The notes under the pieces were generated by a model. It was not told where the DNA came from. It saw nothing but the letters and a program-made list of their open reading frames with translations, and searched no databases. DNA of 64,000 nt. Origin: an uncultured Gemmatimonadales bacterium. GTDB lineage: Bacteria > Gemmatimonadota > Gemmatimonadetes > Gemmatimonadales > GWC2-71-9. This document shows, one piece after another, positions 4,900 through 36,793 of this stretch. The stretch covers positions 101,701 to 165,700 of the forward strand of contig CAVSLY010000011.1 in the NCBI GenBank assembly GCA_963728705.1. The letters are read 5' to 3'. Each line of letters opens with the position of its first letter. The first letter of the stretch is position 1. The translations under genes were made by a program, and so were the position numbers.

Positions 4900-5855
4900 A
4901 TGACGCCATCGACCCCCGACCAGGCGCGCCTGCTGCGCCGGCTCGCCTGGACCGGCAGCGCCCTGGCCCTGGGCCTGATCGTGCTCGGAGGGGTCGTCCG
5001 GATCACCGGCTCCGGCATGGGCTGCGGGGATCACTGGCCCCGCTGCAACGGCGAGTGGTTCCCGCCGCTCGACCTCCCGACCCTGATCGAGATCGGACAC
5101 CGCTGGGCGGCGGCGCTGGTCAGCCTGCTGGTCTTCGCCGTGGCGCTGGTGGCCTGGCGGCGGCATCGGAACGAGCCGGCGCTCCGGAATCCCGCCCTGC
5201 TGGCGGCGGTGCTCCTGGTGGTCCAGGTGCTGCTGGGCGCGGTCACCGTCAAGCTGGCGCTGCCTCCCTGGGTGATCATCACCCATCTCGCCAACGCCAT
5301 GCTCCTGCTGGCCGCGCTGATGGTGGTGGCGCTCCGGGCCGGGGCGCCCGAAGGTCCGCTCTAGGCCCAGGCTCGAGGCGCGGCACGCCGCCCACAGGCT
5401 GGTCGCTGGCCACCGCCGGCGCTCGGCTTCGTGGTGATCCTGTTCGGCGCGCAGGTCGCCAACTTCCACGCGGGCCTCCTCTGCCTCGGCTTCCCGCTCT
5501 GCGACGGCGGCGCTGCTGCCGCCGGCCTCGTCCCTCGGCCGCGCTGCACTGGGCGCACCGGGTGCTCGCCTTCGCCTTCCTCGGCCTGGCGCTCGTGATG
5601 GTGAGTCGGGTGAGCCGGCGGGCCGACGCGGCCGGGCAGCCGCTCCGGCGGGCGGCGGCCGCTGGTGCTCGCCGCCACCGTGGCACAGATCGCGGTGGCG
5701 GCGGCGATGGTGCTCCACCTGCTGCCGCCGGCGCTCCGCGCGCTGCACCTGCTGGTGGGCACGCTGGTCTGGGCGGCGCTGGTCCTGCTGGTGTTCCACT
5801 CCGGCCGGACGCCCGCCGCCGAGCCCGAGGCCGTCGAGGCGGAGCCCGGCGCCGC
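4900..5855 (+). pseudogene. ctaA: heme A synthase (COX15/CtaA), at least 3 apparent frameshifts, 3' boundary uncertain
   Basis: ATG 4900 (MTPSTPDQ...). VVRITGSGMGCGDHWPRCNGEWFP, and a second half with GLLCLGFPLCDG and HWAHRVLAF. Must be read across ORFs 4825..5364, 5055..5891 and 5665..6507. Confidence 0.75.
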
Positions 5856-5860
5856 GGCGC

Positions 5861-6756
<896 letters not shown>

Positions 6757-6782
6757 TCATTCTCGGCCGGCCCGGGGAACAG

Positions 6783-8636
6783 ATGGCCATTGCCGCGCGG
6801 CGGCGCACGTGCACCAGTGAGCCGCGCCGCATCCTCCTCGCCGCCGCGGACCGCGCTGCGTCCGCGCTGCTCGGCCGCCGCCGGTCCGACCCGTATCGGC
6901 CATACGCTGGCTGCTCGGCGCGACCGTCGCGCTGGTGCTGAGCAGCATGGCCAGCCTCGCCTTCCCGATGGTCGTCCGCTACCTCCTCGACGCCGCGTTC
7001 GTGGGCCGCGACCGCGCGCTGCTCGACCGCATCGCGCTCGGCCTGGTGGCGCTGTTCTCCGTGCAGGCGGTGCTCAACTACATCCAGGCCTACCTGCTGA
7101 GCGCGGCCGGCGAGCAGGCGGTGGCCGGGCTCCGGCGCGAGCTCTTCGCGCCGCCTGCTGGAGATGCCGCCCGGCTTCTTCGCCGAGCGCCGCACGGGCG
7201 AGCTCACCAGCCGGCTGACCGTCGACATCGGCGCTGCTGCAGAGCGTGCTGAGCCACCAGATCTCGGAGTTCTGCCCGCCAGGTGCTGGCGCTCGTGGGC
7301 GGCATCGTGCTGCTCACCTGGCTCCAGCCCCGGCTCACGCTGACCGCGCTGCTGGTGGCGCCGGTCGTGGTCGGCACGGCCATCGTCTTCGGGCGCCGGC
7401 TCCGGCGGATCACCACCGGGGTGCAGGACCGGGTCGCCGAGGCGAGCGCGGTGGCGGAGGAGGCGTTCTCGCAGATCCGCACGGTGCAGAGCTTCGTGCA
7501 GGAGCCCGCCGAGCGGGCCCGGTACGGCGAGCGGATCGCGGCGAGCGTCCGGACTGGCGCTCAAGCGCGCCCAGGTGCGGGGCGTGTTCTTCGGCATGCT
7601 CACCTTCTCGACCTTCGCCGGCGATCGTGTTCGTGCTCTGGCAGGGCGGTCTGCTGGTGCTCGACGGCAGGCTCACCGCCGGGCGCGCTGGTCAGGTTCC
7701 TGCTCTACACGATCACGATCGCGGCGTCGATCGGCGCGCTGGCCACGTCGTTCACCACCTACCAGGAGGCGGTGGGCGCCGCGGAGCGGGTGTTCGAGAT
7801 CCTCGAGATGACCCCGGCGATCGCGGATCCCCCGTCGCCCGCGCCGCTGGCGAGCGCCGGTCCGGGGCCAGGTGGCGTTCGAAGGCGTGAGCTTCCGCTA
7901 CCAGGCCGATCCTTCGCTGCCGTGGACGCTGGACGACGTAACCTCGCCGTCGCGCCGGGCGAGATCGTGGCGCTGGTGGGCCCGTCGGGCGGCGGCAAGA
8001 CCACGCTGGTCTCGCTGCTGCCGCGGTTCTGGGACGTGGACCAGGGCCGGATCACGCTCGACGGCATCGACACCCGCGCGCTCCGGCTGGCCGACCTGCG
8101 CGGCGCCATCGGCATCGTGCCGCAGGAGCCGGCGCTCTTCAGCGGGACGATCCGGGAGAACATCGCCTACGCCCGGCCCGAGCGCCACGGAGGCCGACGT
8201 GCTGGCGGCGGCGCGGGCGGCGCACGCGCACGAGTTCGTCGAGCGGCTGCCGCTGGGGTACGAGACGCTGGTCGGCGAGCGCGGGGTCAAGCTGTGCGGC
8301 GGCCAGCGGCAGCGCGTGGCGATCGCGCGCGCGATCCTCAAGGATCCGGCGGTGCTCATCCTCGACGAGGCCACCAGCAGCCTGGACAACGAGAGCGAGC
8401 GGCTGATCGAGGACGCGCTCTCGAAGCTGCTGGTGGGGCGGACGACGCTCATCATCGCGCACCGGCTGAGCACGGTGCAGCGGGCGGACCGGCTGCTGGT
8501 GCTCGATCACGGGCGGATCGTGGAGGAAGGGACGCACGGGGAGCTGTTGGGGCTCGGCGGGCTGTATGCGCGGCTGTATCAGCGGCAGTTCAGGGAGGAT
8601 GCGCCGGCGGCTGGGGAGGGGCTGGTGTTGAGATAG
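6783..8636 (+). pseudogene. MsbA-like ABC exporter (fused permease-ATPase), about 10 apparent frameshifts
   Basis: TMD then NBD recovered by switching among ORFs 6489.., 6935.., 7246.., 7283.., 7575.. and 7872... Walker [10 protein letters not shown], signature [13 protein letters not shown], Walker [11 protein letters not shown]-loop IIAHRLS. Switches near 6900, 7150, 7230, 7275, 7555, 7622, 7685, 7862, 7940 and 8182. Confidence 0.8.
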
Positions 8637-8829: not shown

Positions 8830-9942
8830 CTACGGCGTCGTGATCGCGAGCGAGATCCAGTCGGGTGCGGGATCGGGCGGATCGTAGAACGGCCCGAAGT
8901 TCACGACACCCAGAAGGTAATCGCCCGCAACCAGCGTGAGCGTGCAGTGCTCCTCTCCTCCATCCTCCGCATTCCCGAGGTCGTCACAGAGTTGATCGGG
9001 AATATCTTGCGTGCCGTCGGCGTTAAGGATGTACACGCCGAGGTCGGTCGTGTTGTTCCAGGCCAGTGTCACGTCTAAATCACCGTCCGCCGGCATCGTG
9101 AACTTGTACAACTGGCAAGGCACGCCCGAGTTTCCACCGCACACTGCCGCCCCGAACCCGGAACCGTCATAGAACGCGGTCGTGCCACCCGAAGCAGGTA
9201 TCTCGATCACCGGGGCGGTCGCCGGGTCGTCGGTGCCGGGCTGCGGCGGAACCGAGGCCGAAATGGTGAGCGGCACGTCCGTGCTGTCGCTGAGCGGTGC
9301 CTGCGGCAGGTAGGGAAGGGCCAGCCCGGTGATGATGCCCCTGCTCGTGGCCCCCGGTGGCGGGAAGATCGTGATCTGCTTGCCGTCATCCGAAATGCCG
9401 AGGACGATCGCCGCGCCGGCATCGAACGTGACGGTCGTGCCCTCGGCGAAGATGTAGGGGTCCGGGGCGGTGATGACCGTCTCGTCGCTGGCACTCGGCC
9501 CGGTCGACGTGACCGTGGCGACCGGAATGTTGGCCGGATCGGCGGACACCAGCACAGGGATCGTGACCTGTTGCCCGGCGGCGCTCACGACGAAGCTCGT
9601 GGACACCAGATCCGTTCCCGTCACAATGAACTGAAATGTAGGCGCCGTGGGTGGCACCGTCAGCGAGTCGCCGACGAATTGCTCGAAGAACGTCGAATCC
9701 CGCTTCACGCTGATTCCCGACCCGACCGCCGAGACCTCGTACGCGGAGGGGATGACGTTACCCTGGTCGTCCACGGCGCTGACCTGGATCGTCTTGACCT
9801 TCCCCTGGGTCACATTGAGCGTCGACGGTGTCGCCTGGATCCTCGTGACGGGGCCGCGCAGGTCCTCGGTCGGGTCGTTGTTGCACCCGCTCACGACCAG
9901 GAGAGCGATCAGTGAAACCGTACCAGATGTCAAGCGATTCAT
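8830..9942 (-). CDS. lipoprotein with N-terminal bacterial Ig-like (Big_2-type) and C-terminal PPC-like domains
   Basis: ATG 9942 gives MNRLTSGTVSLIALLVVSGC (lipobox). IQATPSTLNVTQGKVKTIQVSAVDDQGNVIP is Big_2-like. The C-terminal YKFTMPADGDLDVTLAWNN..LTLVAGDYLLGVVNF resembles a pre-peptidase C-terminal domain. Confidence 0.6.
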   Translation of the reverse strand: MNRLTSGTVSLIALLVVSGCNNDPTEDLRGPVTRIQATPSTLNVTQGKVKTIQVSAVDDQGNVIPSAYEVSAVGSGISVKRDSTFFEQFVGDSLTVPPTAPTFQFIVTGTDLVSTSFVVSAAGQQVTIPVLVSADPANIPVATVTSTGPSASDETVITAPDPYIFAEGTTVTFDAGAAIVLGISDDGKQITIFPPPGATSRGIITGLALPYLPQAPLSDSTDVPLTISASVPPQPGTDDPATAPVIEIPASGGTTAFYDGSGFGAAVCGGNSGVPCQLYKFTMPADGDLDVTLAWNNTTDLGVYILNADGTQDIPDQLCDDLGNAEDGGEEHCTLTLVAGDYLLGVVNFGPFYDPPDPAPDWISLAITTP

Positions 9943-9995
9943 ACCTCGCACCTCGTTCAATGGGCCTGTAGAGACAGCGGCATCCCCTGTACCTG

Positions 9996-11450
9996 TCATG
10001 GACTCCGGTCCTGGAGCAGATCCCCCCTGCGGAGCAGGTCGACCCCCACGAACCGGCTGATGTCGAGCACGGCGTCTTCCTTCCGCAGCAATTCCGCCCA
10101 GTTGGGCAAGTTCGTCTCGCGCACGTCGTTCGAGGTCACGAGCTGGTAGATCCCCAGGCCGCTGGTGCGATCGACGAAGACGTAGTACCGGTTCTTTCCG
10201 CGCGTGTAGTGCCACACCTCGTACGGGGGGGACCGGCCGGCCTGGGGCCGTTGCAGCACTTCATCCGGGGCCCCGGCCCGAACGTAGATCCGGCCCCGAT
10301 CGGTCTTCCATCCCGGCCTCGAGGCACGGCCCTTTTCCCCGTAGTTCTTCTCGACGAGCGCGATCGCATCGTAAAACTGCTGCCGGGCTTCGTTTGCCAC
10401 GGGGCCGGGTGTCGGGTCCAGCTTGGCCCAGAACTCGGCGAGGAAGCGCCGCTTGGCACGGACGCTCAGCCCCTTGTAGGGCCTGAGCTCGCCCGATTTC
10501 GCGATCAGCGTGAGGGGCGCCTCGGCCGCGTCCAGCTGCGCTTCGTTCATGTCCTCGAAGTAGCCGGCGTCGGTGCCCTTCGCCGCCTCTTTGCGGGCAA
10601 CAGCGCTTTCCAGGGTCTGATCGAGCCCTGCCATCGTGAACCCGGCGGATCGCTCGACCGCGGTTCCGGCGAGCGCCAGCGCGGCGGTCATGGTGTACCG
10701 ACCCGCCGGAAGCCCGGTCAGGTCGAGCTGACCTTTCAATACACCGCCCCCGGCCGGCACCTGGACCTTCGTCGCGGGAGTGGTCGTGAGCACCTTCCCC
10801 GCGGAATCCACCACCTTCAGCACCAGAGTCCCTTCCGACTGCTGGGGCGCGTACGCCTCGAGCAGGTAGAACACCATCGGACGGAGCGGTGTCAGCTCGA
10901 GCCGGGCGGCGGCGGTGACGAGCATCCGCCCCCATCGAAGCTCCGCCGGCTGGGGAACCGTGTCTTCCTCCGTGACCGGCCGGATCTTCGGCGACAGCAA
11001 TAGGTCCGACGCCGGCGGGATCGAGGTGAACCCCTCGAGGGGGACCGTGGAGGTGACCTTCCGCCCGGAGACCGAGTCCTCGACCCCCACCTCGAGCGTG
11101 TAGCGACCGGGGGCCAGTGAGAACCGCACGGTCTCGACGCCGAACGCAGACGGCTGGCGCAGCGCCTCGTCCGCGTGATTCTGCCAGGACTGTTGCAGCA
11201 GGGTGAGGCCCGTGGAATCGGTCACCTTGACCGCGACCCGGTAACTCATCCTGCCGCCACCACCCTCGGATGCGGGCTCCAGGATCATGTAGGGCACCTG
11301 GAGAAAGGCGGTCACTTCGGTCCGCTGCTGCTCCGCCCGGTACGAACGAACCGCGCGAAGCACCAGGGGTGATTCCGGCGGCGCCGGCCGCTGCTGCGCC
11401 TGCGCCAGGACTGCCACGACCGCGAGGATCGCCCATCGCACTGCAAGCAT
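9996..11450 (-). CDS. GWxTD domain-containing secreted protein
   Basis: Intact 484-aa ORF with a signal peptide (MLAVRWAILAVVAVLAQAQ). C-terminal GWKTDRGRIYVRAGAPDEV...PPYEVWHY matches the GWxTD domain pattern. Confidence 0.7.
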   Translation of the reverse strand: MLAVRWAILAVVAVLAQAQQRPAPPESPLVLRAVRSYRAEQQRTEVTAFLQVPYMILEPASEGGGGRMSYRVAVKVTDSTGLTLLQQSWQNHADEALRQPSAFGVETVRFSLAPGRYTLEVGVEDSVSGRKVTSTVPLEGFTSIPPASDLLLSPKIRPVTEEDTVPQPAELRWGRMLVTAAARLELTPLRPMVFYLLEAYAPQQSEGTLVLKVVDSAGKVLTTTPATKVQVPAGGGVLKGQLDLTGLPAGRYTMTAALALAGTAVERSAGFTMAGLDQTLESAVARKEAAKGTDAGYFEDMNEAQLDAAEAPLTLIAKSGELRPYKGLSVRAKRRFLAEFWAKLDPTPGPVANEARQQFYDAIALVEKNYGEKGRASRPGWKTDRGRIYVRAGAPDEVLQRPQAGRSPPYEVWHYTRGKNRYYVFVDRTSGLGIYQLVTSNDVRETNLPNWAELLRKEDAVLDISRFVGVDLLRRGDLLQDRSP

Positions 11451-11507
11451 ATGTCAGCTACACCAAGGCTGGGGGGCCGCTGATCGCGGCCCAGGAATTA
11501 CGCCCGC

Positions 11508-12647
11508 TTACCACCCCAGCGAGAAGCTGAAGAAATTCGTCGGGCCAAGGACGCCAAGATACTTGTACGCGTAGTCGAGGCCGAGGGAAAAACCATTCCC
11601 CGCGCCGTACATGAGCCCGCCGCCGAAGGCGAGGCCCTGCAGGGTCTCCTCGTCATTCAGCGCGGTCTGCGAGGTCTCCGGGTCGAGATTGTTGGCCCCG
11701 GTGTAGCTGTAGCTGCCCCGCAGTGCGAAGCCGAAGTTCGAGCCGCCGAGCTTGTTGGACATCCACTCGCTGCCGAACGCGAATCCGGGCTTGTTGTTGT
11801 TCGGCTGGTTGAAGTCGCCCAGCACGGTCAGGCGGTTGTTCTCGCCCGTGAGGACGTCGTACGCCAACCCGACCCGGAACGTGGTGGGCAGCGGGAAGTC
11901 CTTGGTGAGCAGGTTCGACTGCTGCGGCAGCGTGGGCGTCTCGTCCTCGCCCGGAATCGGCGTGCGCGGCACGTTCCCCTGGAGCCCCGTGCCCTCGTAG
12001 TTCAGGTTCGAGCCGATATTGGCGAGCACGAACGAGAATTTGACGGGGTGGTTGTTCAGGGAGGCGTGGAAGTTGGTGCCGAAGTCCACCGCGAACGCAC
12101 TTCCGCTGACCGTGCCCAGCCGGTCGTTGACGTACTTGGCGGTGATGCCCGCCGAGAACCGGTCGGAGAAGTTCTGGGCGAAGGTGGCGCCCACGAAGGT
12201 CTGGTTGACCGAGTAGGTGCCGCCCGTTCCGTTGGGCTGCTCTTCGGTGTAGATCGGCTGGTCCTTGAACCCGAAGGTCCCGAGCTGGAACCCGATGGTC
12301 CGGGCCCCGCCCGAGAGCGGGAAGGCGACGCCGCCCCACGAGTAGCGGGTGTCGGCGAGGTAGTCGTAAGTCCCGACCATGATCCCGGGCCGCTCGAGCA
12401 GTGCCGCGCCGGCCGGGTTGTAATACAGAGCGCTGACGTCGGTGACGATCGAAGCGAACGATCCGCCGAGCGCCGTGCCGCGGGCGCCCGCCCCGAGCAG
12501 AAGGAACTCGCCCGAGGTCGTGCCGTAGGACGTGTTGTCCTCCTGCCCGACCGGCTGTCCCGTGCTGTTCTGTGCTGCCAACCCGGCTGGAACCGCGTTC
12601 AACAGGCCGAAGGCGAGCAGCCACCCAGGCGTAGAGAGCTTCACCAT
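11508..12647 (-). CDS. PorV/PorQ-family outer-membrane beta-barrel
   Basis: Intact 379-aa ORF with a signal peptide. GEFLLLGAGARGTALGGSFASIVTDVSALYYNPAG is typical of the PorV/PorQ (FadL-like) family. Alternating beta-strand pattern ending ...FFSFSLGW. Confidence 0.7.
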   Translation of the reverse strand: MVKLSTPGWLLAFGLLNAVPAGLAAQNSTGQPVGQEDNTSYGTTSGEFLLLGAGARGTALGGSFASIVTDVSALYYNPAGAALLERPGIMVGTYDYLADTRYSWGGVAFPLSGGARTIGFQLGTFGFKDQPIYTEEQPNGTGGTYSVNQTFVGATFAQNFSDRFSAGITAKYVNDRLGTVSGSAFAVDFGTNFHASLNNHPVKFSFVLANIGSNLNYEGTGLQGNVPRTPIPGEDETPTLPQQSNLLTKDFPLPTTFRVGLAYDVLTGENNRLTVLGDFNQPNNNKPGFAFGSEWMSNKLGGSNFGFALRGSYSYTGANNLDPETSQTALNDEETLQGLAFGGGLMYGAGNGFSLGLDYAYKYLGVLGPTNFFSFSLGW

Positions 12648-12702: not shown

Positions 12703-15700
12703 CTATTGCGCGAAGTTCACGACCGTGAAGCGACCGACTCTGCGAGCGTCGCCGGCTTCGATGTGATAGAAGTACACGCCGCTGGCGACCACTTGGTTGT
12801 TCCGGTTGCGCAGATCCCAGTTCATCTCGCTGCCCTGAGACGCGCTGGCGGAGCTGTATTGGCCGCCGTGGTGCTCGAGCATCCGCACCAGCACGCCGCT
12901 GGCGGAGTAGATCCGGATGATCGCGTCCTGCGGCAGACCCACGAACTTCAGGATCTTCTGGTCGGTGCTCGCCTCGTACTTGCTCTGCACGTAGTACGGG
13001 TCGGGCACCGTGTGCACGTGCTGAGGTCGCCCTTGGTGGCCGCGACCACGACGTTGTTCGGGGTGAGAGTGGCCGTGGCGCTGGCGCCGACCGCCGTGAA
13101 GGGCCGGGTGGCCGGCGAGAAGCTGTACGGACCGATGTTCCCCGCCGCCCCGTTGCCGCCGTTGACAGCGCCGGTGTAGGTCCGAAGCGCCCAGACGGTG
13201 CCGGCGGCCGGCAGGGTCGGCATCTGCATCATGAACTGATGGCCCGCGACGTAGAAGATGAACCCCGGCTCCGCAGCCGTCGCACTGACGCTGTCAAGGC
13301 CGATCCTGCCGGACGAGATGGAGATCGACCCGAGCGAGGCGTGTGGCTCAGGGCGTAGGCCGTGGCCGTGGTGCATGGAATCCGCAGCGCAGGCCCGCTG
13401 AGCACCGACCGCATCGGCTCGACGCAGGCCATGTCGGACTGAGTCAGCACCGTCGGGCGGGCGTCGTACTCGCCTGCTTGGCCGGTGGCGGCCGTGTTCA
13501 GGATGCCGAACCGCATCCGCCCAAGGTAGGCAGGAACGGCACCGTCACGTCGTGGGTGACGTCGATGACCGAGTCCACCAGCCCGCCCGCGCCCCAGTAC
13601 ACGTTGAAGTCCGCGGCCCGCGCCGCGCCGCTCATGGTCCATTCGGCGTTGCGCCAGGTGCGATCCTGGAAGATGTACGCGTGCGGCTCATTGATTACGG
13701 TGACACCGGTGAGCGCACCCGCGTTGTTGAAGTTGGTGACGGTGGCGCCGGCGGCATCCTCGACTCCGACGTTGCCGCCGTTGGGGTCAGCCGCGGTCTC
13801 GTTCGTGGTCGGCGACGGGCCGTCAAACCACCGCGCGCCGTTGTAGAAGCAGTTGCCGTTCGGGATCGAAGCCCGGGTCGGCCCCGGCGATGCATCCCAA
13901 CCCCTGCCCGGTGAGGTACGTGCTGGCCGGCATGGTGAGATTCACCTGGGCCGAGAGCTTGAACGCGGCGCCCGGCGATTCGAACTTGTTGGCGACCGCG
14001 GCATCCACCGGCGACACGTCGTTGGAGAAGCCAATGCCCGTCGTGTCGTTCGCCGACGAGCCCGTGGCGAGACCGCCCGACGTGAGCGTCACCGGCACCG
14101 AGAAGTTCGCGGCGCTCGGCGTGCCCGGCGCCGACGTCATCCAGTAGATGTTGGGTGACGGCGTCGGCGAGGCACCGAAGATGGCGGCGTTGCCCGACTG
14201 GCCCAGCGAGATGCTGTCGAGCTGCACGGTGAGCTGCGTCGGGCCGCCGAGAATCTGGCTGATCGAAGCCACCAAGCCCGCGCTCGCGCCGTTGGCCGGC
14301 GGGAACGGCCCGCTGAACTTGCCGGTCGCCGGATCGATCGTGGGCACCGTGGTGTTGGTCAGGAGCCCGTTCCGGCCGCTCGTCGTGATGGTGACGGCCA
14401 CGTCGGCTTGCTGGTTCGGCGACAGCGGGGTTGGCGTCACCGCCTTGGTCTTCCGCTGCGACTCCAGGCTCGACGGGCCCGAGGCCACCGAGTTCACGTC
14501 GAACGCGCTCACGGCGTAGAAGTACCGCAGGCTGTTGCGCACGCCGTTGTCGACGAACAGGAACGGAATGCCGCCGTTGACCAGGTTGGTCGTGACACCC
14601 TGGCCCACGCGGCCGCGCGTGATGTCGACGAACGCCGTGTCCAGCAGGCCGGGAAGCACCTGCGCCTCGCCCGACTGCCAGGAGCACGCGGTTGCCTGGA
14701 ATGATCTGGGTGATCTGACCCACCAGGTCGATGTTGGTCGAGCCGACGAACGGGCTCGCCCGGGAGCGGGGTGGAGAACGTGATGGCGCAGGTGGTCTGG
14801 ACACCGAGCTCTGGAGCGCACCCGGGAACCGGGTTCACGATGCCACGGAAGTCGGCGAAGAGGCCGCGTCCCGTCGCGTCCGGCGCATAGTCGAACTGCG
14901 CGATGAGCTGGCAGCTGGCTCGGGTTGTCCACCCGGCCGCGATAGATCCGGTAACCTTCCACATCGAGGCCGCGGAAGTTCGGATCGTACAGCGCATTCA
15001 CGACCGGGGCCCGGTGATCGGGTCCGGCACCAGCGGCTGGCTCGCGATGTTGAAGAACGGATCAGGCGTCGTCTCGGTCGCCGAGCGATTCCACAGGACG
15101 GTGACCTGGTTGTCGCCCGGAACCAGGAAGAAGTCCGGACGGTCGGGGGCGAAGGGGAGCAGGAACTTGTTGGTGAACACGGTCTGCGCCGTCTTCGACT
15201 TGCCCAGCAGCGAGCCCGGCACGGCGCTGATCTCGTCCTGGGTGACATTGCCATCGCCATCGGCGTCGTCGAAGTCCAGATACCCGGTCATGGTGTCGAT
15301 CTTGTTTACGCCCGAGGCCATCCGGGTCGGCGCGCCCATGATCGTGAGGTTGGCGTTGACCGACGCCGGCTTGACGTCGCAGGCGGCGCCCGGGCAACCG
15401 GCGGACCGGACCGGGGCGGCGAAGATGTAGGCCACCACGATCGTGCCCGAGCCGCCCGGCGCCAGGTTAAGCGGGCCGGACGACTGGAACAGCCGCATGT
15501 CCGCCTGGCTGCTGATGTTGACGAAGCAGATGTGGGCCTGCAGCGGGTTGGGCAGCGAGCAGGCGCCGTCTTGCTCGGTCAGGCCGCCGGTGATGTAGCG
15601 GTAGAGCTGCTTGTCATCGTTCGGGTCCTGCAGCGAGCCGGACGACCGGGAGAACGTCCCGAACAGCGTCAGGCCGACCTCCAGGCCGGTGACCGGGTCG

Positions 15701-16772
15701 ACGGGGCTGCGCAGGAATTTCATGCCCACGAACCCGACGCCCGCGAAGAACGGCGCGGAGCCGAAGATGGCAGGATCGAAGGTCCAGCCGAGGTCGGCGG
15801 CGTTGCTGAAGGCGTGATCGTAGGTGTAGCCCAGCGCGAACGGCACGTTGACGCTGGCGTAGTTGACGTCGGCCTGGGCCACGTCCATGTCGGCACGCTG
15901 GCGGCGAACAGGTCGTTGATGGCGTAGCCGCCGGCCGGCAGGTTGATGCCGTACTTGGCGGTGTTCAGCGCCTGGAAGTCTGCCGCCTTCTGCAGCAGGA
16001 CGGGGCGGAGCGACGGGCCGGATGGCCGCGTATGCCGCGGGGTCCGTGCTGGTGACGTTGTAAAAGGTGTACATGACATAGATGATGTCTTCGTTGCCGC
16101 TCGGGAAGTTCCAGCCGAGCACGCGGGTCTCGACCGCGATGCCCAGCGGATGGGTCCGGGAGGCGAGCTGGCCCGGATCGCCTTCCCACGACATGAACCA
16201 CAGGTCGCCCTGCGACGCCGCGATGGCGCCCTGGAGCGGCGGGGCGAACAGGTCGCCGGCCGGATCGGTGCCGAGCCCGTTGGTGAGGCAGGGGCTGGCG
16301 GGGTCGGTGTTGGTGGCGGAGCACGGCACGCGCGCCTCGTCCGGCCACGCCGCGAAGTCCGCGGGATCGGCGGAGGAGAAGATCGGCCGGACCTCCATGC
16401 CGTTGCTGGTGCCGGCGGTGTTGTTGAAGAACGCCGCCCGCGGTGTCTCCCGCGAAGCCGTTCACCGAGTTGTCACCCGCCTCGATGATGCCGGCGATGT
16501 TGATGCCGGAGCCGAAGACATACTGGTCCGCGGTGCCGCGGGGCCAGATGCCGCCGCCCACCGTCGATGAGCCGGTGGCGCAGATCGAGCCGTCCGAGAA
16601 GATCCGGCACTGCACCCGGTTCGTCTGGAAGACGTGATCGCGCTGGAGAGGAGCCGGAACCGCCTTCCCGGGCTTCTGGCTTGGCCATGGCGACCGAGGA
16701 TGCGGCGACGCTCAGCGCCAGTGCCGCGGCGGCGACCCGCATCAGACTGCGCTGACAACGCGAGAAAAGCAT
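12703..16772 (-). pseudogene. large secreted protein (~1,350 aa if repaired) with a T9SS-type C-terminal sorting domain, about 12 apparent frameshifts
   Basis: ATG 16772 is preceded by AAGGAGGA. Signal peptide MLFSRCQRSLMRVAAAALALSVAASSVAMA. Fn3-like DNQVTVLWN..GYRIYRGRV. Last ~80 aa (ORF 12703..13017: KILKFVGLPQDAIIRIYSASGVLV..VASGVYFYHIEAG..RFTVV) match the Por-secretion-tail/FlgD-Ig-like pattern. Coding signal hops among ORFs 16473.., 15965.., 14998.., 15720.., 13823.., 14509.., 13695.., 13229.., 12948.. and 12703... Confidence 0.65.
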
Positions 16773-16859
16773 TCCGTCCTCCTTAGAGAGAAACACGGCC
16801 ATCCGGCTCGGCCCTCCGCCCGGTGTCCCGGGCGGAGAGCCGGCCGAAGGCGAGTCCGG

Positions 16860-19800
16860 TCAGAAGTTGATCTCGAAGCCCAGCCGCGCGCGGCGAGCCG
16901 GGGCGGTCTGTTCCTGCTCGCCGCGGCCCGCGTCGTACAGCGCGTTGATGGCGTTGGTCTGCTCTTCGACAGTGTACGATGCCGTCGCCGTTACCGAACC
17001 GCTGCTCGGCCCGGATCAGGTACATGCAGTTGGCCGCGGCCGGGCGCTCCGCCTTGCTGGCGACCCAGGTGTTGCAGTCCTCGTGCGCCGCCGGAAGCAC
17101 GATGCGCCACCGCTCGGCCCGACCGCTTCGTTGGCGTCGCGCTCGGTGGCGAGGTCGTTGAGATCGGCGAGCAGATTGTCGGCGCGCTCCTGATCGTTCC
17201 GGGTGTCGCCGTTCACCGCGAAGACCTGGATGACGTTCTTCCAGTTGAACAGGTTGCGGACGTCGAGGTAGGCGGTCAGGTCCAGTCCGCCCAGGCCGAA
17301 GCCCTTGGTGAGCTTGGCGTTGAACTCCTTGAGCGCGGGCAGCCGCTGGGTGTTGATCCCCTCGGGGAAGAGGCGGACGCAGTTCTCGATCGAGAGCACG
17401 CTCTGCTCTTCGGGGCTCGATGCCGCACTTGGTGTACGCCGTGCCGCTGGTGTAGCGGAAGGTCGTGAACACGCTGACGTTGCCCAGGACGTTGCCGAGC
17501 ACGAGCCCTTGCGCCAGTCGCCCGGGAAGGTGAGCGAGAACGCGCTCGCCAGCGTGTGCGGCCGGCTGTTGTCGGTCGCGCAGGATGCCCTGCGGTGGCG
17601 GCTGGGCGCCGTTGTTGCCGCCGACCTGGTTCACGATGCGGGAGCCGTAGTTCGTGTAGGTGAACGGATCGGAGCCCGTGTTCTTGGCCTGACTGGTACG
17701 AGTAGGAGACCGTGCCGTTGAAGTAGTTCCCGAACCGCCGGTCGAGCCGGACGTCGACGCCGCGGACGTTGCCGAAGTCGAGGTTCGTCAGGATCCGGAA
17801 ATCGTTGTCGCGGCCCAGCGTCGGGTCGAACAGCGTGACCAGGCGCGCGGCCGGATCGGAGACGATGTCCTTGTTGTACGCGGCGACGTCGAGCACCATG
17901 TCGTCGCTGAAGGCGTGCCGGATGCCGAACTCGAACGCGATCGTCTTGCCGAAGTCGAGGTCGGTGCCGTACACCTGGTTGGTGTTGGTGTTGTTCAGGT
18001 CGGTGTTGATGCCGCCGAGCAGCAGCGCGAAGTCCGGCGTCTGCACCTGGTGCGAGTACGACAGCCGGAAGTTGGTCCGGTCGGTCACCGGGAACGACAC
18101 CTGGATGTGCGGGCTCAGGTAGTCGTGGCTCTTGTCGCGCACGTAGCATCGCGGTCGGGTTGTTCTGATCGAACCCGGGCAGGCTGCTGATCCGGGGGAA
18201 GGCGTAGGTGTTGCCCGCGGTGTCGGTGACGAAGGGCCGCGACGGCCCGGCTGTCGTAGTAGTCGTACCGCAGGCCGCCGACCACCACCACGTCGCCCAG
18301 GTCCAGGCGGTCTTCGACGAAGGCGTTCCACCGGATCGGCTTCTCGCGGTAGGCGTCGGAGAAGAACTTGCTGGTCAGGGCGAAGCGAGTAGCTGTCGAT
18401 GTTGTAGCGGGTGAACTCGCCACCGATCTTGAGCCGGTTGTACCGGTCGGCCTGCCAGTCGAGGGTGGCCTTCCCGATGTACCGTTCTCCTTGTACAGGT
18501 TCAGCCGCTGCGTGCCGCCCGGTGAATTCGCCGGACCGCCGCTCTCGGGGAACATCCAGGTGTCCAGGTCCAGCGTGTTGGCGAAGTTCTGGTACTGCCC
18601 GTAGAGGCCGTACGCGTTGTTCCGGACGTTGTCGACCGGGCTGTACGCGCTGCCGTTGTTGGCGTCGATACGGCGTGATCCGGCCCTGGTCCTTCCGGAC
18701 GTTGTTGATCAGCTCGTCCGTCAGCGGGAAGTTGTCGAAGTCGAACAGGAAGTGCAGTCGGCTTGATGATGAACCCGCCAAACGGATCGCGGGTGGACAG
18801 ATCGCTCTCGCGTCTCGAGCGGCCCGCGGTCGTCCGGTCCTGCTGATAGGAGAGCGCCACGTCCAGCGCCAGCGCCCGCTCGGTGCTCTTCGACAGGTTC
18901 TGGGTCCAGTTCAGCGTCGAGACGTAGTTCCGCGTTGCTGAAGCCCTGCATCGATGACGCCGGCGCCAGGTTGTTGAGGTAGCGGACGATCAAGGGGAAG
19001 CGGTGGCCGTGGTTCCGGCTGGTGGCGAGGCTCAGGGAGACCCGGGAGCCGGTGCCGTAGGTGTAGTTGAGCTTGCCCGAAGCGGTGTAGAGCGTCTGCG
19101 CCGTGGCCGGAAGCCGGACGCCGTTGCAATCGAGCCCGTAGTTGCTCCGGATGCCCTCGATGGCGGCGGCATCGGCGCCGGCGACGCCGGCCTCAGCCCG
19201 CGTTCGCGAACTCATCGCACTTGCCGCGCGAGATGGCGTAGTTGTAGACCGGGACCAGCGAGGTGTCGGCGGTGGCGGACTCGTCCACGGCCAGCGTCTG
19301 CGGGGTCATCCAGCGCGCTCAGCTGGCCGACCGTGGTGTCCACGCCCGCCTGCAGGAAGATCGGGGACGTCCTGGCTGTTGAAGCCTTCCTCGAGCGACT
19401 GCTGGCCCTCGAGCGCGCCGCTCAGCGCGAAGGTCAGCCGGCCGGCCAGCGGTCCGCTGAAGCCCGCCCTCCAGCCGGTTGAACCCGGCGCCGTGGTTCA
19501 CGCCGAACGGCTCGTCGGACTCGACCGAGAAGGATCCCTGGTAGTCGCTGCCGCCGGTCTTGGTGACGATCGCGATGATGCCGGACTTCGCGTTGCCGAA
19601 CTCGGCCGAGGAGGAGCCGGTAGTGACCGACGCCTCTTCGAAGGCGTTGGTGCCGATGCTGAGCGAGGTCGCGGCCGAGCACCCGCGAACCGAGTCGCCG
19701 CGGTAGCCGGCCTGGACGGGGACGCCGTCCACGTAGGTGGCCGCTTCGTTGTTCGCGGCCGCCGCGGATCGAGAGGTTCCCGTTGTTGTCCGCGGTCACG

Positions 19801-20304
19801 CCCGGCTGCAGCTGGAGCACATCGTTGATCCGGTCGACCGGCAGGTGATCGGCGAACTGGCCGTCGATCCGCTGCTTGGTCGTGACCTCGTCGCGCGGCA
19901 CCAGCGGCTGGGTCTGGGTGACGACGGTGATTTCCTGGATCTGCGACCGCCGTCTGCTCCAGCTGGACGTCCACCGTGACGCGTCTGGCCGGCGAGGACC
20001 TTCACGCCTTCCACCTGGGTCGACTTGTACCCGATGAAGGCGGCGCGCACCGAGACTGTGCTCGGCGGGAACGTTGTTGATGAAGTAGTAGCCCTGCGGG
20101 TTGGTGAGGGCGTTGAACGCCGTCCCCACCACGTACACCTGGGCGTTGGCAATGGGCGCGCCCGCTTGGTCGCGCACCCTGCCTTCGATTTTACCAGTCG
20201 AGCTCTGGGCGAGGAGCGAACCGGCTCCTCACGACCAGCGCGACTGCCGCGTACGCGATGACTCGCGCAACGCGTGCGAAGGCGCTGACACGGCAATGCT
20301 TCAT
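16860..20304 (-). pseudogene. Oar-like TonB-dependent receptor with N-terminal carboxypeptidase-regulatory-like domain, at least 12 apparent frameshifts
   Basis: ATG 20304 (MKHCRVSAFARVARVIAYAAVALVV). GRVRDQAGAPIANAQVYVVGT..GYYFINNVP (CarboxypepD_reg-like). Plug LQLQPGVTADNNGNLSIRGGR. Barrel segments across ORFs 19434.., 19319.., 18721.., 18501.., 17276.. and 18115... Terminal ...RLGFEINF then TGA at 16860-16862. Confidence 0.7.
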
Positions 20305-20781: not shown

Positions 20782-21952
20782 TTACGCCGCTGGAACGATG
20801 AGGCGGGTCTGCGGCACACGCGGCGTGACCTCGGGACCGGCCTCGCTCCAGTGCATGTTCACCTCGCTCCGCACGCCGAACTCGCCGGGCAGGTAGATGC
20901 CGGGCTCCACCGAGAACCCGACGCCCGGGACCAGCAGCCGGTCGTCGTGGGTCTCGTAGTCGTCCAGGTGTGGGCCCGAGCCGTGCAGCTCGCGGTCGAT
21001 CGAGTGCCCCGTCCGGTGCACGAACCGCTCGCCGTGGCCGGCCGCCTCCACCACCGCTCGCGCAGCCCGGTCGGCCTCGAACCCCGCGATCGGCCTGCCA
21101 GCCGCCGCCGCCTCGCGCACGGCGGCCACCGCCGCGTCCCGCGCCCCGCGCACCGTCTCCCACACCTGGAGGACCTTGGGCGGCACCCGGCTGCCCGACG
21201 AACCCCATCCACGTCTGGTCGGCGAACACCGTGGTCCGGCTCCGGCCCGCCCAGAGATCGAGCAGCACTACCTCTCCCGAGCGGAGCGTCGCGTCTCGCC
21301 CCGCATGCGGCTCGTAGTGCGGGTTGGCGGAGTTGGGGCCGAAGCCCACGATCGGCAGCGTGTCGAAGACCAGCCCGCGCGCCTCCACCGCCGCCACCAC
21401 CCTGGCCTGCAGCCCCGTCTCGGTGAGCCCCGTGTCACCCTCGCCGACGGCGCGCGCCAGCTCCGCCTGCGCCACCTCCGCCAGCACTTCGGCCGCCGCG
21501 CGGTGGTCCGCCGCCTCCTCGGCCGACCAGCCGGCGGCGAAGCGGCTCACGAGCGGCCCCGACGGCACGATGGTCGCGCCCAGCCGGCGGAGCAGCTCCA
21601 CCACGCCGGCGGGCACCCGGTCCAGGTATGGAACGGCATCCTCGGGCGAGATCTCCATCGCGAGCCGCTTCCCCCGGACCACCTGGCCCAGCGCCGCGTG
21701 CAGCTCCTCCCATCGCGCATACGGCAGCACCCGTCCCGGGAAGCCCTCGACGGCCGCCAGCTCGATCCGATGGGCCACCGCGACCGGCTCGCCCTCGCGC
21801 GGAAGCAGCACGAAGAGCCGCCGGGTGTTGAGCCCCGTCAGCTCGAGCACTCGGGTCGCGACCGGGTTGAGGCCGTGGAAGGCGTACAGCAGCCAGCCGT
21901 CCACGCCGGCCGCCGCCAGCGCCTCCTTGAGCGCGCCGGCGTCGGGAATCAC
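20782..21952 (-). pseudogene. M24-family metallopeptidase (Xaa-Pro aminopeptidase-like), one apparent frameshift
   Basis: N-terminal part in ORF 20651..21982, C-terminal catalytic part in ORF 20782..21186 (FVHRTGHSIDRELHGSGPHL..GFSVEPGIYLPGEFGVRSE). Switch near 21186. GTG 21952 overlaps the upstream stop (GTGA); the alternative start is 21982. Confidence 0.7.
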
Positions 21953-22578
21953 TCGTAGACCTCGGCCGCGGCGCTCCGCCACACACAGGCGTCATCGCCC
22001 CGGGAGCGGCAGCGCTCGTGGACCATGGCGCCCTCGAACGCGGTGAGGTAGTGGAGCAGCTCGCCGTAGGCCGAGCCGTAGAAGGCACAGGCGGCGCCAT
22101 CGGGGACGGCGAGGATGGAGAGCGGGTCGGTCATGCGCACTTCGGTCCCCTGGGTCGGGGAGCGGAGCTCCCCGTCGAACACCTGCCGAGCCAGGCGTGC
22201 CGCCGCGCGAAGCGCCACCCGCCGTGCGATGCCCGCCGGCGAGACCCGCGAGAACGTCCGGGCCGACCGGGAGCGCGAGCGGGCCGCGTAGCGCGCCGCG
22301 CGGCGCCCGGCGTCGGCGAAGCACAGCGCCGCATCCGGCCGGCGTCCCACCAGGCGGAGCACGCTCACCACCTCGTCGAGCTCGACGGTGCCGTCGCGCT
22401 CGGCGGTCGCGCGATAGCGCTGGATCTGGGCCGCCACCGTCGGGCTCAGGCCCAGGCGGCGGACGACGATCTCCTCGGCGAGCTCGTCGAGACCGTCCTC
22501 GACCGGTGTGTCGAGGTTGCGGATCGCCTCGAGCAGGCTGAGCGGGAGGAGCGCGGGAACGGCGGCAGGAGTAGGCAC
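21949..22578 (-). CDS. hypothetical protein, C-terminal V4R-like (hydrocarbon-binding) domain
   Basis: Intact 209-aa ORF. The C-terminus CAFYGSAYGELL..EGAMVHERCRSRGDDACVW resembles the V4R Cys pattern. Weak call. Confidence 0.35.
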   Translation of the reverse strand: MPTPAAVPALLPLSLLEAIRNLDTPVEDGLDELAEEIVVRRLGLSPTVAAQIQRYRATAERDGTVELDEVVSVLRLVGRRPDAALCFADAGRRAARYAARSRSRSARTFSRVSPAGIARRVALRAAARLARQVFDGELRSPTQGTEVRMTDPLSILAVPDGAACAFYGSAYGELLHYLTAFEGAMVHERCRSRGDDACVWRSAAAEVYE

Positions 22579-22622
22579 GGAGTTTGTGTCCGGAAGTGTA
22601 GCGGGTCCATTACATTCTTTCC

Positions 22623-23195
22623 ATGGCCGAGCCGACCACCACCGGACGCCCGTTCGACGCCGAGGCGCTCCCGCATCTCGACGCGCTGTACCGCGTGGCG
22701 CTCCGACTCACCGGCGATCCGACGCAGGCGGAAGACCTGGTCCAGGATACGATGCTCAAGGCCTACCGCGCCTGGCACCAGTACCGGCCCGGGACCAACG
22801 CCAAGGGCTGGCTGCTGACGATTCTCCGCAACACCTTCATCAACGACTACCGCCGCCGCAAGCTCGAGCCCGTGGCCACCGACCTGGAGGCTATCGAGCC
22901 GCACGCCATCTACCGGGCCGTCGAGGACGTCGATCCCGAAGGCGCCTTCTTCTCCAAGATCGTCGACGAGAAGGTGCTCGAGGCCATCGACGCCCTCCCT
23001 CCGGATTTCCGCGAGGTGCTGGTGCTGAGCGACATGGAGGGCCTTCGCTACGGCGAGATCGCCGAGGCGCTGAAAGTGCCGGTCGGCACCGTCAAGTCGC
23101 GCCTCTTCCGTGCCCGCCGCCTGCTGCAGGCATCGCTCTACCAGTACGCGGTGGAGACCGGGATCATTCCTCCGCGCGAGGCGCCGCATGAGTGA
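22623..23195 (+). CDS. ECF (sigma-70 family) RNA polymerase sigma factor
   Basis: Region 2 (DLVQDTMLKAYRAW, GWLLTILRNTFIND) and region 4 (LVLSDMEGLRYGEIAEALKVPVGTVKSRLFRAR). Confidence 0.9.
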   Translation: MAEPTTTGRPFDAEALPHLDALYRVALRLTGDPTQAEDLVQDTMLKAYRAWHQYRPGTNAKGWLLTILRNTFINDYRRRKLEPVATDLEAIEPHAIYRAVEDVDPEGAFFSKIVDEKVLEAIDALPPDFREVLVLSDMEGLRYGEIAEALKVPVGTVKSRLFRARRLLQASLYQYAVETGIIPPREAPHE

Positions 23196-23436
23196 GCCGC
23201 TCGATTGTCGCGAGGCGATCGCCCGCCTCCAGGATTACCTCAAGCAGGAGCTGACCCCCGAGCTGGCTGGTGAGTTGCGCGCCCATCTGGAGTATTGCCG
23301 GCCCTGCGAGGGCTACGCCCGCTTCGAGCGCAGCTTTCTCGAGATGCTCGAGGCCCGGGCTCAGCACTGCTGCTGTCCCGACGAGCTTCGGGCACGAGTG
23401 CTCCGCGACCTGCGCATTGAGATGGAGCAGGGCTGA
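23188..23436 (+). CDS. RsrA-like zinc-binding (ZAS) anti-sigma factor
   Basis: ATG 23188 overlaps the sigma stop by 8 nt. 82 aa. H-x3-C-x2-C (HLEYCRPC) plus an upstream Cys and a CCC cluster, the same layout as mycothiol-system anti-sigma-R. Confidence 0.8.
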   Translation: MSEPLDCREAIARLQDYLKQELTPELAGELRAHLEYCRPCEGYARFERSFLEMLEARAQHCCCPDELRARVLRDLRIEMEQG

Positions 23437-23459
23437 CACCGGTCGTCCTGCCGCTGGCG

Positions 23460-24215
23460 GTGCTCGCCGCCGGGGCCGCGGCATTGCTCGCGTGGGGCGC
23501 GCGGAGCTTGACCACCGGCGGCGCGGTCGCGGCCTGGCTGGTCGGAATCGCGGTACTGGTGGGGACGGGTTGGGCGGGCGGCGCGGTGTTGGCCGCCTTT
23601 TTCGTCTCCAGCAGCGGGATCGGCCGGCTGGCGCCCGCACCGGTCGGCCTCGACCCGAAGGGCGAACGCCGCGACCCGTGGCAGGTCGCGGCCAACGGCG
23701 GCCCCGCGGCGCTTGGGGCCCTGCTCGGACTCCACGATGCGTCGCTTGGACTCTGGGTCGTCACCGGGAGCCTGGCCGCCGCCGCCGCCGATAGCTGGGC
23801 CACCGCCGCCGGCGGCTGGAGCCGCACGCCACCGCGCCGGCTGCTTCTGGGCATCGAGCTGGCGCGGGGAATCAGCGGCGGCATGACGGTCGCCGGCACG
23901 CTCGGCGCGGCGGTGGGCGCGCTGCTCGTGGCCGCCACCGCCGCCGCCGCCGGTGCGGCTCTGGCGCTGCTCCCCGTCGGAACGCTGGTAGGTTTCGTCG
24001 GGATGGTCGCGGACTCCGCCTTGGGTTCCGCCTGGCAGGGGCGCTTCCGCTGCCCCGCCTGCGACGTCGCCAGCGAATGGCGGGTGCATCGGTGCGGCAC
24101 CCGCACCGTGCGGCTGGGAGGGTTGGCATGGCTGGACAACGACGGAGTGAATCTCGCCGCCTCGGCGCTGGGGGCCGTGCTCGCGGGCGTGGCATGGCGC
24201 TGCTGGTCCCGTTGA
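23460..24215 (+). CDS. DUF92/TMEM19-family integral membrane protein
   Basis: TTGGAVAAWLVG..FFVSSS..WQVAANGG..AADSWATAAG..GISGGMTVAGT pattern. Cys-rich insert FRCPAC..HRCG. Start uncertain (GTG 23460). Confidence 0.55.
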   Translation: MLAAGAAALLAWGARSLTTGGAVAAWLVGIAVLVGTGWAGGAVLAAFFVSSSGIGRLAPAPVGLDPKGERRDPWQVAANGGPAALGALLGLHDASLGLWVVTGSLAAAAADSWATAAGGWSRTPPRRLLLGIELARGISGGMTVAGTLGAAVGALLVAATAAAAGAALALLPVGTLVGFVGMVADSALGSAWQGRFRCPACDVASEWRVHRCGTRTVRLGGLAWLDNDGVNLAASALGAVLAGVAWRCWSR

Positions 24216-34854: not shown

Positions 34855-34857
34855 CAG

Positions 34858-36792: not shown

Positions 36793-36793
36793 C

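Follow-up and report, generated by a model that had tools for sequence, protein, structure and literature searches.

Two adjacent genes that head an outer-membrane operon are each interrupted by many changes of reading frame, and the question raised by this locus is whether the organism has lost them or whether the breaks arose during assembly. They lie within the window, by which we mean the whole 64 kb stretch of Gemmatimonadales DNA that was analysed, and encode a TonB-dependent receptor-like protein and a large hypothetical protein with an end that resembles the C-terminal domain of T9SS cargo. A sequence-only reading of this DNA had offered two explanations without choosing between them, a local assembly or polishing failure and a very recent inactivation of the operon's two largest genes; the comparisons described here bear out the former and speak against the latter. 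The frame breaks are very probably consensus errors of a long-read-only metagenome assembly, most probably Nanopore (Flye plus Medaka), rather than mutations of the organism, and the real genes are best explained, from sequence comparison, as two intact ones, for a TonB-dependent receptor and for a 1369-aa T9SS-cargo-like protein.

Frame breaks were counted with a frameshift-aware protein-to-DNA dynamic programme written for the analysis, using as references the intact orthologues on JGI contig L004 (receptor, 1139 aa; P0121, 1369 aa). This programme was used instead of plain tblastn, since a search of the window with the intact receptor gave overlapping HSPs in mixed frames that were unusable for counting. 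The block from 20304 to 12706 required 37 frame corrections in 7.6 kb, or about one per 205 bp (Table 1). The breaks had been correctly located by the sequence-only reading, and its example junctions (~13020, ~14800, ~16400 and ~19430) match sites at 13017, 14754, 16435 and 19468, but its total of about 25 switches was too low: the receptor, credited with at least 12, has 24 (20 one-base insertions, 2 two-base insertions and 2 one-base deletions), while the T9SS-CTD gene, credited with about 12, has 13. A BLASTN gap list gave slightly more breaks in the block than 37 because some adjacent indel pairs cancel. Every fragment had been described as typical of its family, and the corrected proteins do retain high identity to those of L004, with no in-frame stops in 1139 (receptor) and 1364 (1369-aa gene) corrected codons.

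Table 1. Genes and sites of frame correction in the window (site positions are approximate; del, deletion).
Feature	Positions	Strand	Observation
TonB-dependent receptor-like gene (CarboxypepD_reg + Plug + beta-barrel)	16863..20304	-	24 corrections vs L004:6525-9944; 89.4% aa identity
Receptor sites	20229, 20063, 19981, 19944, 19754, 19693, 19676 (2 bp), 19468, 19365, 19298, 19195, 18939
Receptor sites, continued	18758, 18667, 18487 (del), 18385, 18243, 18152, 17689, 17580, 17502 (del), 17418, 17104 (2 bp), 16980
Large hypothetical protein, ~1369 aa, T9SS C-terminal-domain-like end	12706..16802	-	13 corrections vs P0121 / L004:10001-14110; 85.5% aa identity
1369-aa gene sites	16672 (2 bp), 16633 (del), 16435, 16017, 15894 (del), 15010 (del), 14911
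1369-aa gene sites, continued	14754, 14675, 13864, 13514 (2 bp), 13340 (del), 13017 (del)
PorV/PorQ-family outer-membrane protein, intact	11511..12647	-	0 frameshifts; 95.3% identity to L004
GWxTD-domain protein, intact	9999..11450	-	0 frameshifts; 92.3% identity to L004; orthologue TIGR04514 80.9 bits
PPC-domain protein, intact, highly divergent	8833..9942	-	0 frameshifts; 58% identity to L004; Pfam PPC
Second dense block: COX15/CtaA-UbiA haem synthase fusion (haem A/O)	4900-6817	+	12 frameshifts; 93% identity; 0 stops
Second dense block: ABC transporter	6839-8633	+	9 frameshifts; 90% identity; 0 stops
M24 peptidase gene	20785..21952	-	one isolated 1-bp insertion, ~21199; L002 insertion at same spot

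The receptor gene has the predicted architecture of a TonB-dependent receptor, with a plug and a beta-barrel preceded by an N-terminal CarboxypepD_reg domain. In the orthologue, the CarboxypepD_reg and Plug domains scored 64.4 and 37.5 bits (Pfam), and a receptor fragment from the window matched TonB_dep_Rec_b-barrel at 38.8 bits. The protein does not belong to the SusC/RagA family (TIGR04056, 32 bits against a cut-off of 368). Matches to the C-terminus of the 1369-aa protein were all sub-threshold: CHU_C (E = 0.0014, 19.2 bits against a cut-off of 27), and local matches to the C-termini of PorZ and PorU (E = 7e-6 and 3e-4). A T9SS context is supported by the adjoining PorV/PorQ-family gene, the orthologue of which scored 138.6 bits against NCBIfam PorV_fam (cut-off 90). 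A 466-aa broken fragment is already present as a protein in the public database (P0001).

Confinement of the breaks to the first two genes of the operon, as previously described, holds within the 12.7-20.3 kb block; it does not hold for the window, which has a second dense block at 4.9-8.6 kb. There, alignment to L004 revealed 21 frameshifts in 3.7 kb (4900..8633), 20 of them insertions, and a codon-phase HMM, which needs no homologues and scores frame switches that have no nearby in-frame stop, called 11. The next three genes of the operon are intact, as had been reported, and the probability of finding no frameshift in 8833-12647 at the local rate is 6e-7. The sequence-only reading was also right that 36.8-58.3 kb is undamaged, the HMM having found no genuine frame switch at 33.9-58.7 kb. 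Two alarms in this stretch, raised by the HMM's check for a stop close to the 3' end of a segment, proved to be boundary errors: the ORF listing shows a real gene boundary with overlap at 43918 and a continuous 501-aa ORF at 52637. Eight isolated frameshifts lie outside the two dense blocks, and genes with isolated frameshifts include NadC, aquaporin, Kup and aldehyde dehydrogenase as well as the M24 peptidase. With about 66 frameshifts in the window as a whole, the earlier inference that the indels are non-random is well founded (P = 8e-12 for none in 24.8 kb, and P = 4e-14 for at least 37 in 7.6 kb). GC content was considered as a cause of the dense patches and rejected, since the GC ranges of clean and dense stretches overlap. 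Frameshift density correlated weakly with divergence between sister contigs, and clean stretches at 5-6% divergence were found beside dense ones at 5%. Unrelated and housekeeping genes are damaged in the same way as the receptor, as expected of an artefact.

Three sister contigs (L001, L002 and L003; ENA records named contig_N) and L004 were available for comparison. One ORF spans the receptor in L001 (1140 aa, 92% nt identity) and in L004, where the entire operon is intact, including the gene for the 1369-aa protein. Frameshift counts in the window, L001, L002, L003 and L004, respectively, were 24, 0, 23, 13 and 0 for the receptor, mostly at differing positions, 13, 23, 1, 13 and 0 for the 1369-aa protein, 0, 5, 0, 5 and 0 for the GWxTD protein, and 0, 0, 0, 1 and 0 for PorV. 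Indels are therefore private to one assembly, and each sister with a contig_N-style name has its own kilobase-scale patches in other genes. Regions of 20 kb were also aligned four ways with MAFFT; the alignment was noisy where the sequences diverge, and was used only to survey the number of private indels per kb. Some positions do recur between independent assemblies (14 pairs against about 5 expected by chance, P ~ 0.001), and sites common to different samples include receptor codons 451, 541 and 712 and M24 codon 252. Such recurrence could in principle also reflect shared real variants.

The corrected genes show no relaxation of purifying selection. The receptor dN/dS between the window and L004 is 0.264, compared to 0.253 for the intact pair L001-L004, and that of the 1369-aa gene is 0.298, compared to 0.241-0.284. 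Values of dS for the broken genes are the same as those of neighbouring genes.

The state of the receptor gene was then related to sequencing platform, which was assigned to contigs carrying homologues from their names and record titles; L004 and contigs named k141_ or NODE_ we take, from their naming, to be short-read assemblies. Of 132 contigs regarded as short-read, 130 had an unbroken homologue: a single open frame was present in all 52 GTDB MAG contigs whose names are of short-read style and in 78 of the 80 from JGI, as against 21 of 28 Microflora Danica (MFD) Nanopore contigs (Fisher p = 7e-5). Damage follows sequencing platform, not lineage. The other broken MFD loci carry few gaps each. 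The window itself is probably also a long-read assembly, judging from its three sisters with Flye-style contig_N names like those of Microflora Danica MAGs, and would derive from an MFD-type pipeline. The MFD long-read catalogue is Nanopore-only, being assembled with Flye (minimum read coverage 8) and given one round of Medaka without short-read polishing (PMC12313526). Indels in a Nanopore consensus lead to frameshifts, and near-finished genomes from R10.4 data need about 40x coverage (PMC9262707).

Across the window and L001-L003, 144 clean 1-bp indels were collected, of which 121 are insertions and 23 deletions (about 5:1, or 84% insertions). This is not the homopolymer-associated, deletion-rich Nanopore spectrum; textbook Nanopore error is dominated by homopolymer deletions. 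Few insertions extend a run, as the inserted base equals a neighbouring base in 37/121 (random expectation 60.7 +/- 5.3) and adjoins no copy of itself in 87/121. The atypical spectrum points to an origin in polishing or strain mixture and not in homopolymer miscalls. Among the 108 insertions within CDS, 84 adjoin a third codon position and 24 do not adjoin a wobble base. The inserted base is the same as the adjoining wobble base in only 3-4 of the 84, where about 28 would be expected by a context-free estimate from compositions, and replacing the wobble base by the inserted one would be synonymous in 70/81 cases (56.8 expected, p = 5e-4). In 35 of 79 cases the inserted base is the wobble allele of sister contigs (28.7 expected, p = 0.09), and C/G pairs are over-represented (59/84, compared to 49% in natural wobble differences). 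No 3-, 4- or 5-mer was enriched across the 121 insertion sites after multiple-test correction.

Insertions that look like a synonymous second allele beside the wobble base suggest collapsed strain variation. The patches may represent reads of two or more co-occurring strains that were collapsed into one contig, or regions of very low local depth. In either case, a synonymous wobble SNP would enter the consensus with its two alleles side by side, the polisher thereby adding one base; a minority of sites resemble context-specific errors that recur between samples. This two-allele step has partial support, given the 24 insertions away from a wobble base, the sister-allele comparison and the C/G excess.

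Low local depth by itself, with one to a few reads, raw errors surviving polishing and no mixture of strains, is an unlikely explanation of the damage, though one with an appreciable chance of being correct. Patches of 4-8 kb are on the scale of read lengths, isolated frameshifts occur across much of the remaining contig, and the density of about one error per 200-300 bp is close to the raw-read indel rate. The MFD pipeline takes contigs from about 8x coverage (PMC12313526). Against it, random errors should neither avoid copying the adjacent wobble base, nor favour synonymous alternatives, nor turn up repeatedly at one codon in separate samples, and the near absence of run-extending errors would be unexpected. 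Systematic basecalling errors at DNA-modification motifs would explain why identical insertions are found at identical conserved sites, such as CCGT[A]TCGAC in the window and L002, but they would not give kilobase patches separated by clean stretches, and with no short motif enriched at the insertion sites we give this cause a small probability. The chance is slighter that hybrid polishing failed because short reads multi-mapped to paralogous receptors and left long-read indels in place, as the sequence-only reading had suggested by way of example. Paralogous copies of the operon do occur within single related MAGs; however, they are only about 70-78% identical as proteins, no second receptor copy was found within the window, the second dense block affects housekeeping genes that are not paralogous and are of single-copy type, and the likely source pipeline has no short-read polishing step (PMC12313526).

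Biological explanations fare less well. A real and very recent pseudogenisation of the receptor and T9SS-cargo genes in the population, for example by loss of a phage or predator receptor, would fit the finding that, of the four contig_N-style assemblies, three or four have these genes broken, the elevated divergence of these surface proteins and the recurrence of some indel positions, but its probability is very slight. The dN/dS values are those of intact pairs and nonsense codons are absent, while the window's branch of the receptor has 24 frameshifts alongside about 61 private codon changes, an indel-to-substitution ratio several-fold above that known for bacterial neutral sequence. The 5:1 excess of insertions (22 insertions to 2 deletions in the receptor alone) is opposite to the well-known deletion bias of bacteria. 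Similar damage is present in the haem synthase and ABC transporter of the window and in the GWxTD and other genes of the sisters, and nearly all contigs taken as short-read are intact. Programmed frameshifting, transcriptional slippage or repeat-mediated phase variation has nothing in its favour but the presence of frame changes. With 37 sites in two genes that orthologues read in a single frame, and no slippery runs or simple repeats (given the 87 of 121 insertions without an adjoining self-copy), this explanation is refuted by orthologues and site contexts, and its probability is negligible.

The preferred reading, consensus error in a long-read-only assembly, can be compared with known kinds of damage. 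The frameshifts of Nanopore-only consensus sequences (the subject of the IDEEL test, Homopolish and proovframe) are alike in that 1-bp indels split ORFs into fragments that keep their homology, are private to an assembly and dependent on platform, and affect housekeeping genes as well. They differ in that homopolymer deletion is the classic form, whereas here 84% are insertions that mostly do not extend runs, and in that the damage forms kilobase patches and is not evenly spread. Collapsed strain haplotypes, a problem of the Strainberry type, share the patchy damage in genes with high divergence between populations, and the wobble-adjacent insertions resemble a second synonymous allele, although here this is read from the consensus alone. 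A SNP written out as a doublet is our own proposal, and was not found described in the literature consulted. Bacterial pseudogenes likewise have multiple frameshifts in otherwise recognisable genes; the present case differs from them in its unrelaxed selection, lack of nonsense codons, insertion bias, intact orthologues and damaged housekeeping neighbours.

Since consensus error almost certainly accounts for the breaks, what has been found flags a problem of data quality and is not biology. The window and at least three related contig_N contigs would contain patches, kilobases in length, in which a false frameshift occurs every 200-300 bp, and gene calls, pseudogene counts, protein clusters and inferences of gene loss drawn from such contigs are unreliable. 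If the wobble-doublet reading is true, +1 insertions beside third codon positions, in which the inserted base is the synonymous alternative, would be a mark by which collapsed strain variation in Nanopore MAGs could be recognised without reads, useful to builders and curators of long-read genome catalogues. Orthologues have the operon intact, and nothing new follows for its biology. That some breaks are real, the recurrent sites being standing loss-of-function variants maintained in surface receptors by phages or predators, has a very low probability even when taken jointly with a milder, technical version, by which frameshift-dense patches in long-read MAGs may mark hot spots of strain microdiversity. 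Under that milder version, the two genes, for the receptor and the T9SS cargo, would count among these hot spots in populations throughout Gemmatimonadales.

The minus strand of the window (about 70% GC) carries a single cluster of five genes at 20.3-8.8 kb, and in the ORF list the first two of these appear only as short overlapping fragments spread over all three minus-strand frames. By Pfam the receptor qualifies as a TonB-dependent receptor; by profile comparison it lies outside SusC/RagA. Curated cut-offs are exceeded for the PorV/PorQ-family and GWxTD genes, and the large protein owes its T9SS-CTD label to sub-threshold matches only. Taken by themselves, the genes of the cluster are ordinary. 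A protein search with the longest window fragment returned that fragment itself (P0001, on a 209,637-bp NCBI/ENA contig) and many Gemmatimonadales relatives. Close relatives include three on long ENA contigs named in Flye style, L001 (ERZ25039556, 1.29 Mb), L002 (ERZ25039585) and L003 (ERZ25039574). A 44 kb JGI contig, L004, was reached through P0121, the 1369 aa large-protein orthologue and a member of the 90%-identity cluster. In L004 all five operon genes are uninterrupted (receptor 1139 aa, large protein 1369, PorV-family 379, GWxTD 483, PPC 359), as are the M24 peptidase (389 aa), ABC transporter (598 aa) and COX15-UbiA (635 aa) genes. DNA identity of the window to L001 and L004 is 90-96% over about 20 kb. 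The 466 aa public-database "protein" P0001 (14998-16398, minus) is a two-frame chimera, its middle section (~15894-16017) being out of frame and flanked by a compensating insertion and deletion.

Features of the window and their frameshifts, with counts for the sister contigs where compared
Feature	Position	Strand	Window	L001	L002	L003	L004	Details
NadC(-like)	~3117		1					translation read
COX15/CtaA-UbiA haem synthase fusion	4900-6817	plus	12					aligner
ABC transporter	6839-8633	plus	9					aligner
PPC-domain	8833-9942	minus	0					aligner
GWxTD-domain	within 12647-8833	minus	0	5	0	5	0	aligner
PorV/PorQ-family	within 12647-8833	minus	0	0	0	1	0	aligner
Large protein	16802-12706	minus	13	23	1	13	0	C-terminus weakly like T9SS sorting domains; 85.5% aa identity corrected; 0 in-frame stops
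TonB-dependent receptor-like	20304-16863	minus	24	0	23	13	0	20 ins1, 2 ins2, 2 del1; CarboxypepD_reg, Plug, barrel domains; 89.4% aa identity corrected; 0 in-frame stops
M24 peptidase	~21199		1	0	1	1	0	isolated; aligner
Eight upstream genes	21952-26308		1					the M24 frameshift, ~21199
MIP/aquaporin	~29063		1					NPA motifs divided between two frames; translation read
CcmA-like ABC ATPase	~31466		1					translation read
Kup-type K+ transporter tandem pair	33059-36795	minus	2					about 650 aa each; second (downstream) copy broken at ~33924 and ~33059; translation read
ABC-2 permease	~58735		1					translation read
Aldehyde/P5C dehydrogenase	~60774		1					translation read

Frame corrections were counted by aligning L004 proteins to the window with a purpose-written protein-to-DNA aligner allowing +1/+2/-1/-2 frame changes. 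A homologue-free codon-phase HMM trained on intact genes served as an independent check. Of the frame switches that it called with no in-frame stop close by, 22 lie in 13.0-19.8 kb and 11 in 4.9-8.2 kb; elsewhere they are only isolated. The window holds about 66 frameshifts in 64 kb, and their clustering is far from random: neither the HMM nor translation reading detected a frameshift at 33.9-58.7 kb (chance of a clean 24.8 kb, P = 8e-12), and 37 fall within 7.6 kb (P = 4e-14). The sequence-only reading, which had reported about 25 strongly non-random frame switches in two genes followed by three intact ones, was thus correct and its count conservative. Its statement that the breaks are confined to two genes holds inside this block and fails for the whole window, where there are isolated frameshifts and a second dense block (4900-8633, plus; 20 of 21 frameshifts are insertions) whose genes are single ORFs in L004.

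The damage pattern differs from sister contig to sister contig, and intact orthologues exist. In the pairwise gap list the extra bases lie in the window at window breaks and in L001 at L001 breaks. Indel positions in independent assemblies coincide within one codon in 14 pairs, where chance predicts about 5 (P about 0.001-0.002); recurring positions are window ~18669, ~18939, ~18148, ~21199 and ~15010, with matching codons in L002 and L003. In some recurrences both assemblies have the same base inserted at the same site, in a context that is fully conserved and not wobble, e.g., CCGT[A]TCGAC (window ~18669 and L002); these resemble an error of basecalling or polishing tied to sequence context. 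Among k-mers spanning the insertion sites none was enriched after multiple-test correction, and no motif was found. Nucleotide divergence between sister genomes reaches 16-28% at ~13000-14300 (the C-terminal third of the large protein) and in the PPC gene, compared with 3-6% in genes flanking these stretches; the PPC product has 58% aa identity with that of L004. This suggests that both are fast-evolving, surface-exposed parts.

The frame breaks are almost certainly an assembly or polishing artefact and no real biological feature, since five lines agree: intact orthologues with contig-specific damage, unchanged selection, the indel spectrum, damage to housekeeping genes and tracking of the sequencing platform. 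Very recent inactivation, the other explanation originally offered, would make these genes pseudogenes, and fails on several counts besides the intact orthologues. Receptor dN/dS is 0.264 between window and L004, against 0.253 between L001 and L004, where both copies are intact; at 0.23, dS is the same as in the intact genes on either side, and the corrected frames of the receptor and large protein contain no nonsense codons. Bacterial pseudogenes are deletion-biased, and the spectrum here is unlike natural decay: with L004 as reference, clean one-base indels in the four contig_N-style assemblies (window and L001-L003) comprise 121 insertions and 23 deletions, and only 37 of the 121 inserted bases match a neighbour (60.7 +/- 5.3 expected at random). 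The housekeeping genes at 4900-8633 are struck at equal density. Programmed frameshifting and repeat-mediated phase variation were rejected, there being no slippery or repeat contexts at the sites.

Platform was compared across 160 fetched loci encoding receptor homologues, scored for a single open frame across the match. This was found in 52/52 GTDB MAG contigs with MEGAHIT- or SPAdes-style names and 78/80 JGI metagenome contigs, and in only 21/28 long-read MAG contigs of Microflora Danica (MFD; Fisher p = 7e-5), assigned by record titles of the form "isolate MFD....bin..., contig: contig_N". The two JGI exceptions, L116 and L144 (presumed short-read), may reflect either true pseudogenes or faulty assembly. 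Individual Gemmatimonadales MAGs may carry 2-3 paralogous receptor copies with 51-77% aa identity to the L004 copy (L012, L015 and L043 in MFD01275.bin.2.206; L025, L063 and L075 in MFD09212.bin.1.36). From its sister contigs, we infer that the window belongs with an MFD-type Nanopore project. The MFD catalogue used Nanopore reads, Flye (with read coverage of at least 8 for large datasets) and a single Medaka round, with no short reads, and its authors reported Nanopore-associated errors in lower-coverage MAGs (PMC12313526). The same group found that a near-finished R10.4 consensus requires about 40x coverage and that frameshifted gene calls result from indels (PMC9262707). Frameshifted gene calls are a familiar problem of Nanopore-only assemblies; unlike the usual cases, the errors here are patchy, dominated by insertions and mostly do not extend base runs.

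Placement of the insertions is also non-random relative to the codons: of 108 inside genes, 84 lie beside a third position (chi-square p = 0.013; 0.04 conditioned on flanking dinucleotide). The inserted base equals the adjoining wobble base in 3-4 of these 84, against about 28 by a context-free estimate from base compositions, and the change from wobble to inserted base would be synonymous in 70/81 (codon usage predicts 56.8; p = 5e-4). Counting either neighbour, 71/108 insertions would pass for a synonymous alternative allele (34.0 +/- 4.6 at random sites). Such a pattern would be expected if, in a mixed-strain pile-up, the consensus retained both alleles of a synonymous SNP at the price of one extra base, a solution that a polisher which counts read deletions as cheap might favour; the kilobase patches would then be stretches with two collapsed haplotypes. 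Such a mechanism would also account for the insertion bias and for the repeated involvement of two fast-evolving surface-protein genes, and is the probable, though only partly supported, origin of the errors. Several observations fit it less well: C/G pairs make up 59/84 wobble-adjacent insertions, where natural synonymous wobble differences are C/G in 49%, with transitions under-represented among the insertions, sisters carry the inserted base as their own allele not significantly above expectation (p = 0.09), and 24/108 in-gene insertions have no adjoining wobble base. Plain low local depth is a serious alternative or contributor. If both alleles were indeed written into the consensus, the wobble-doublet signature may help to recognise collapsed strain variation where no reads are at hand.
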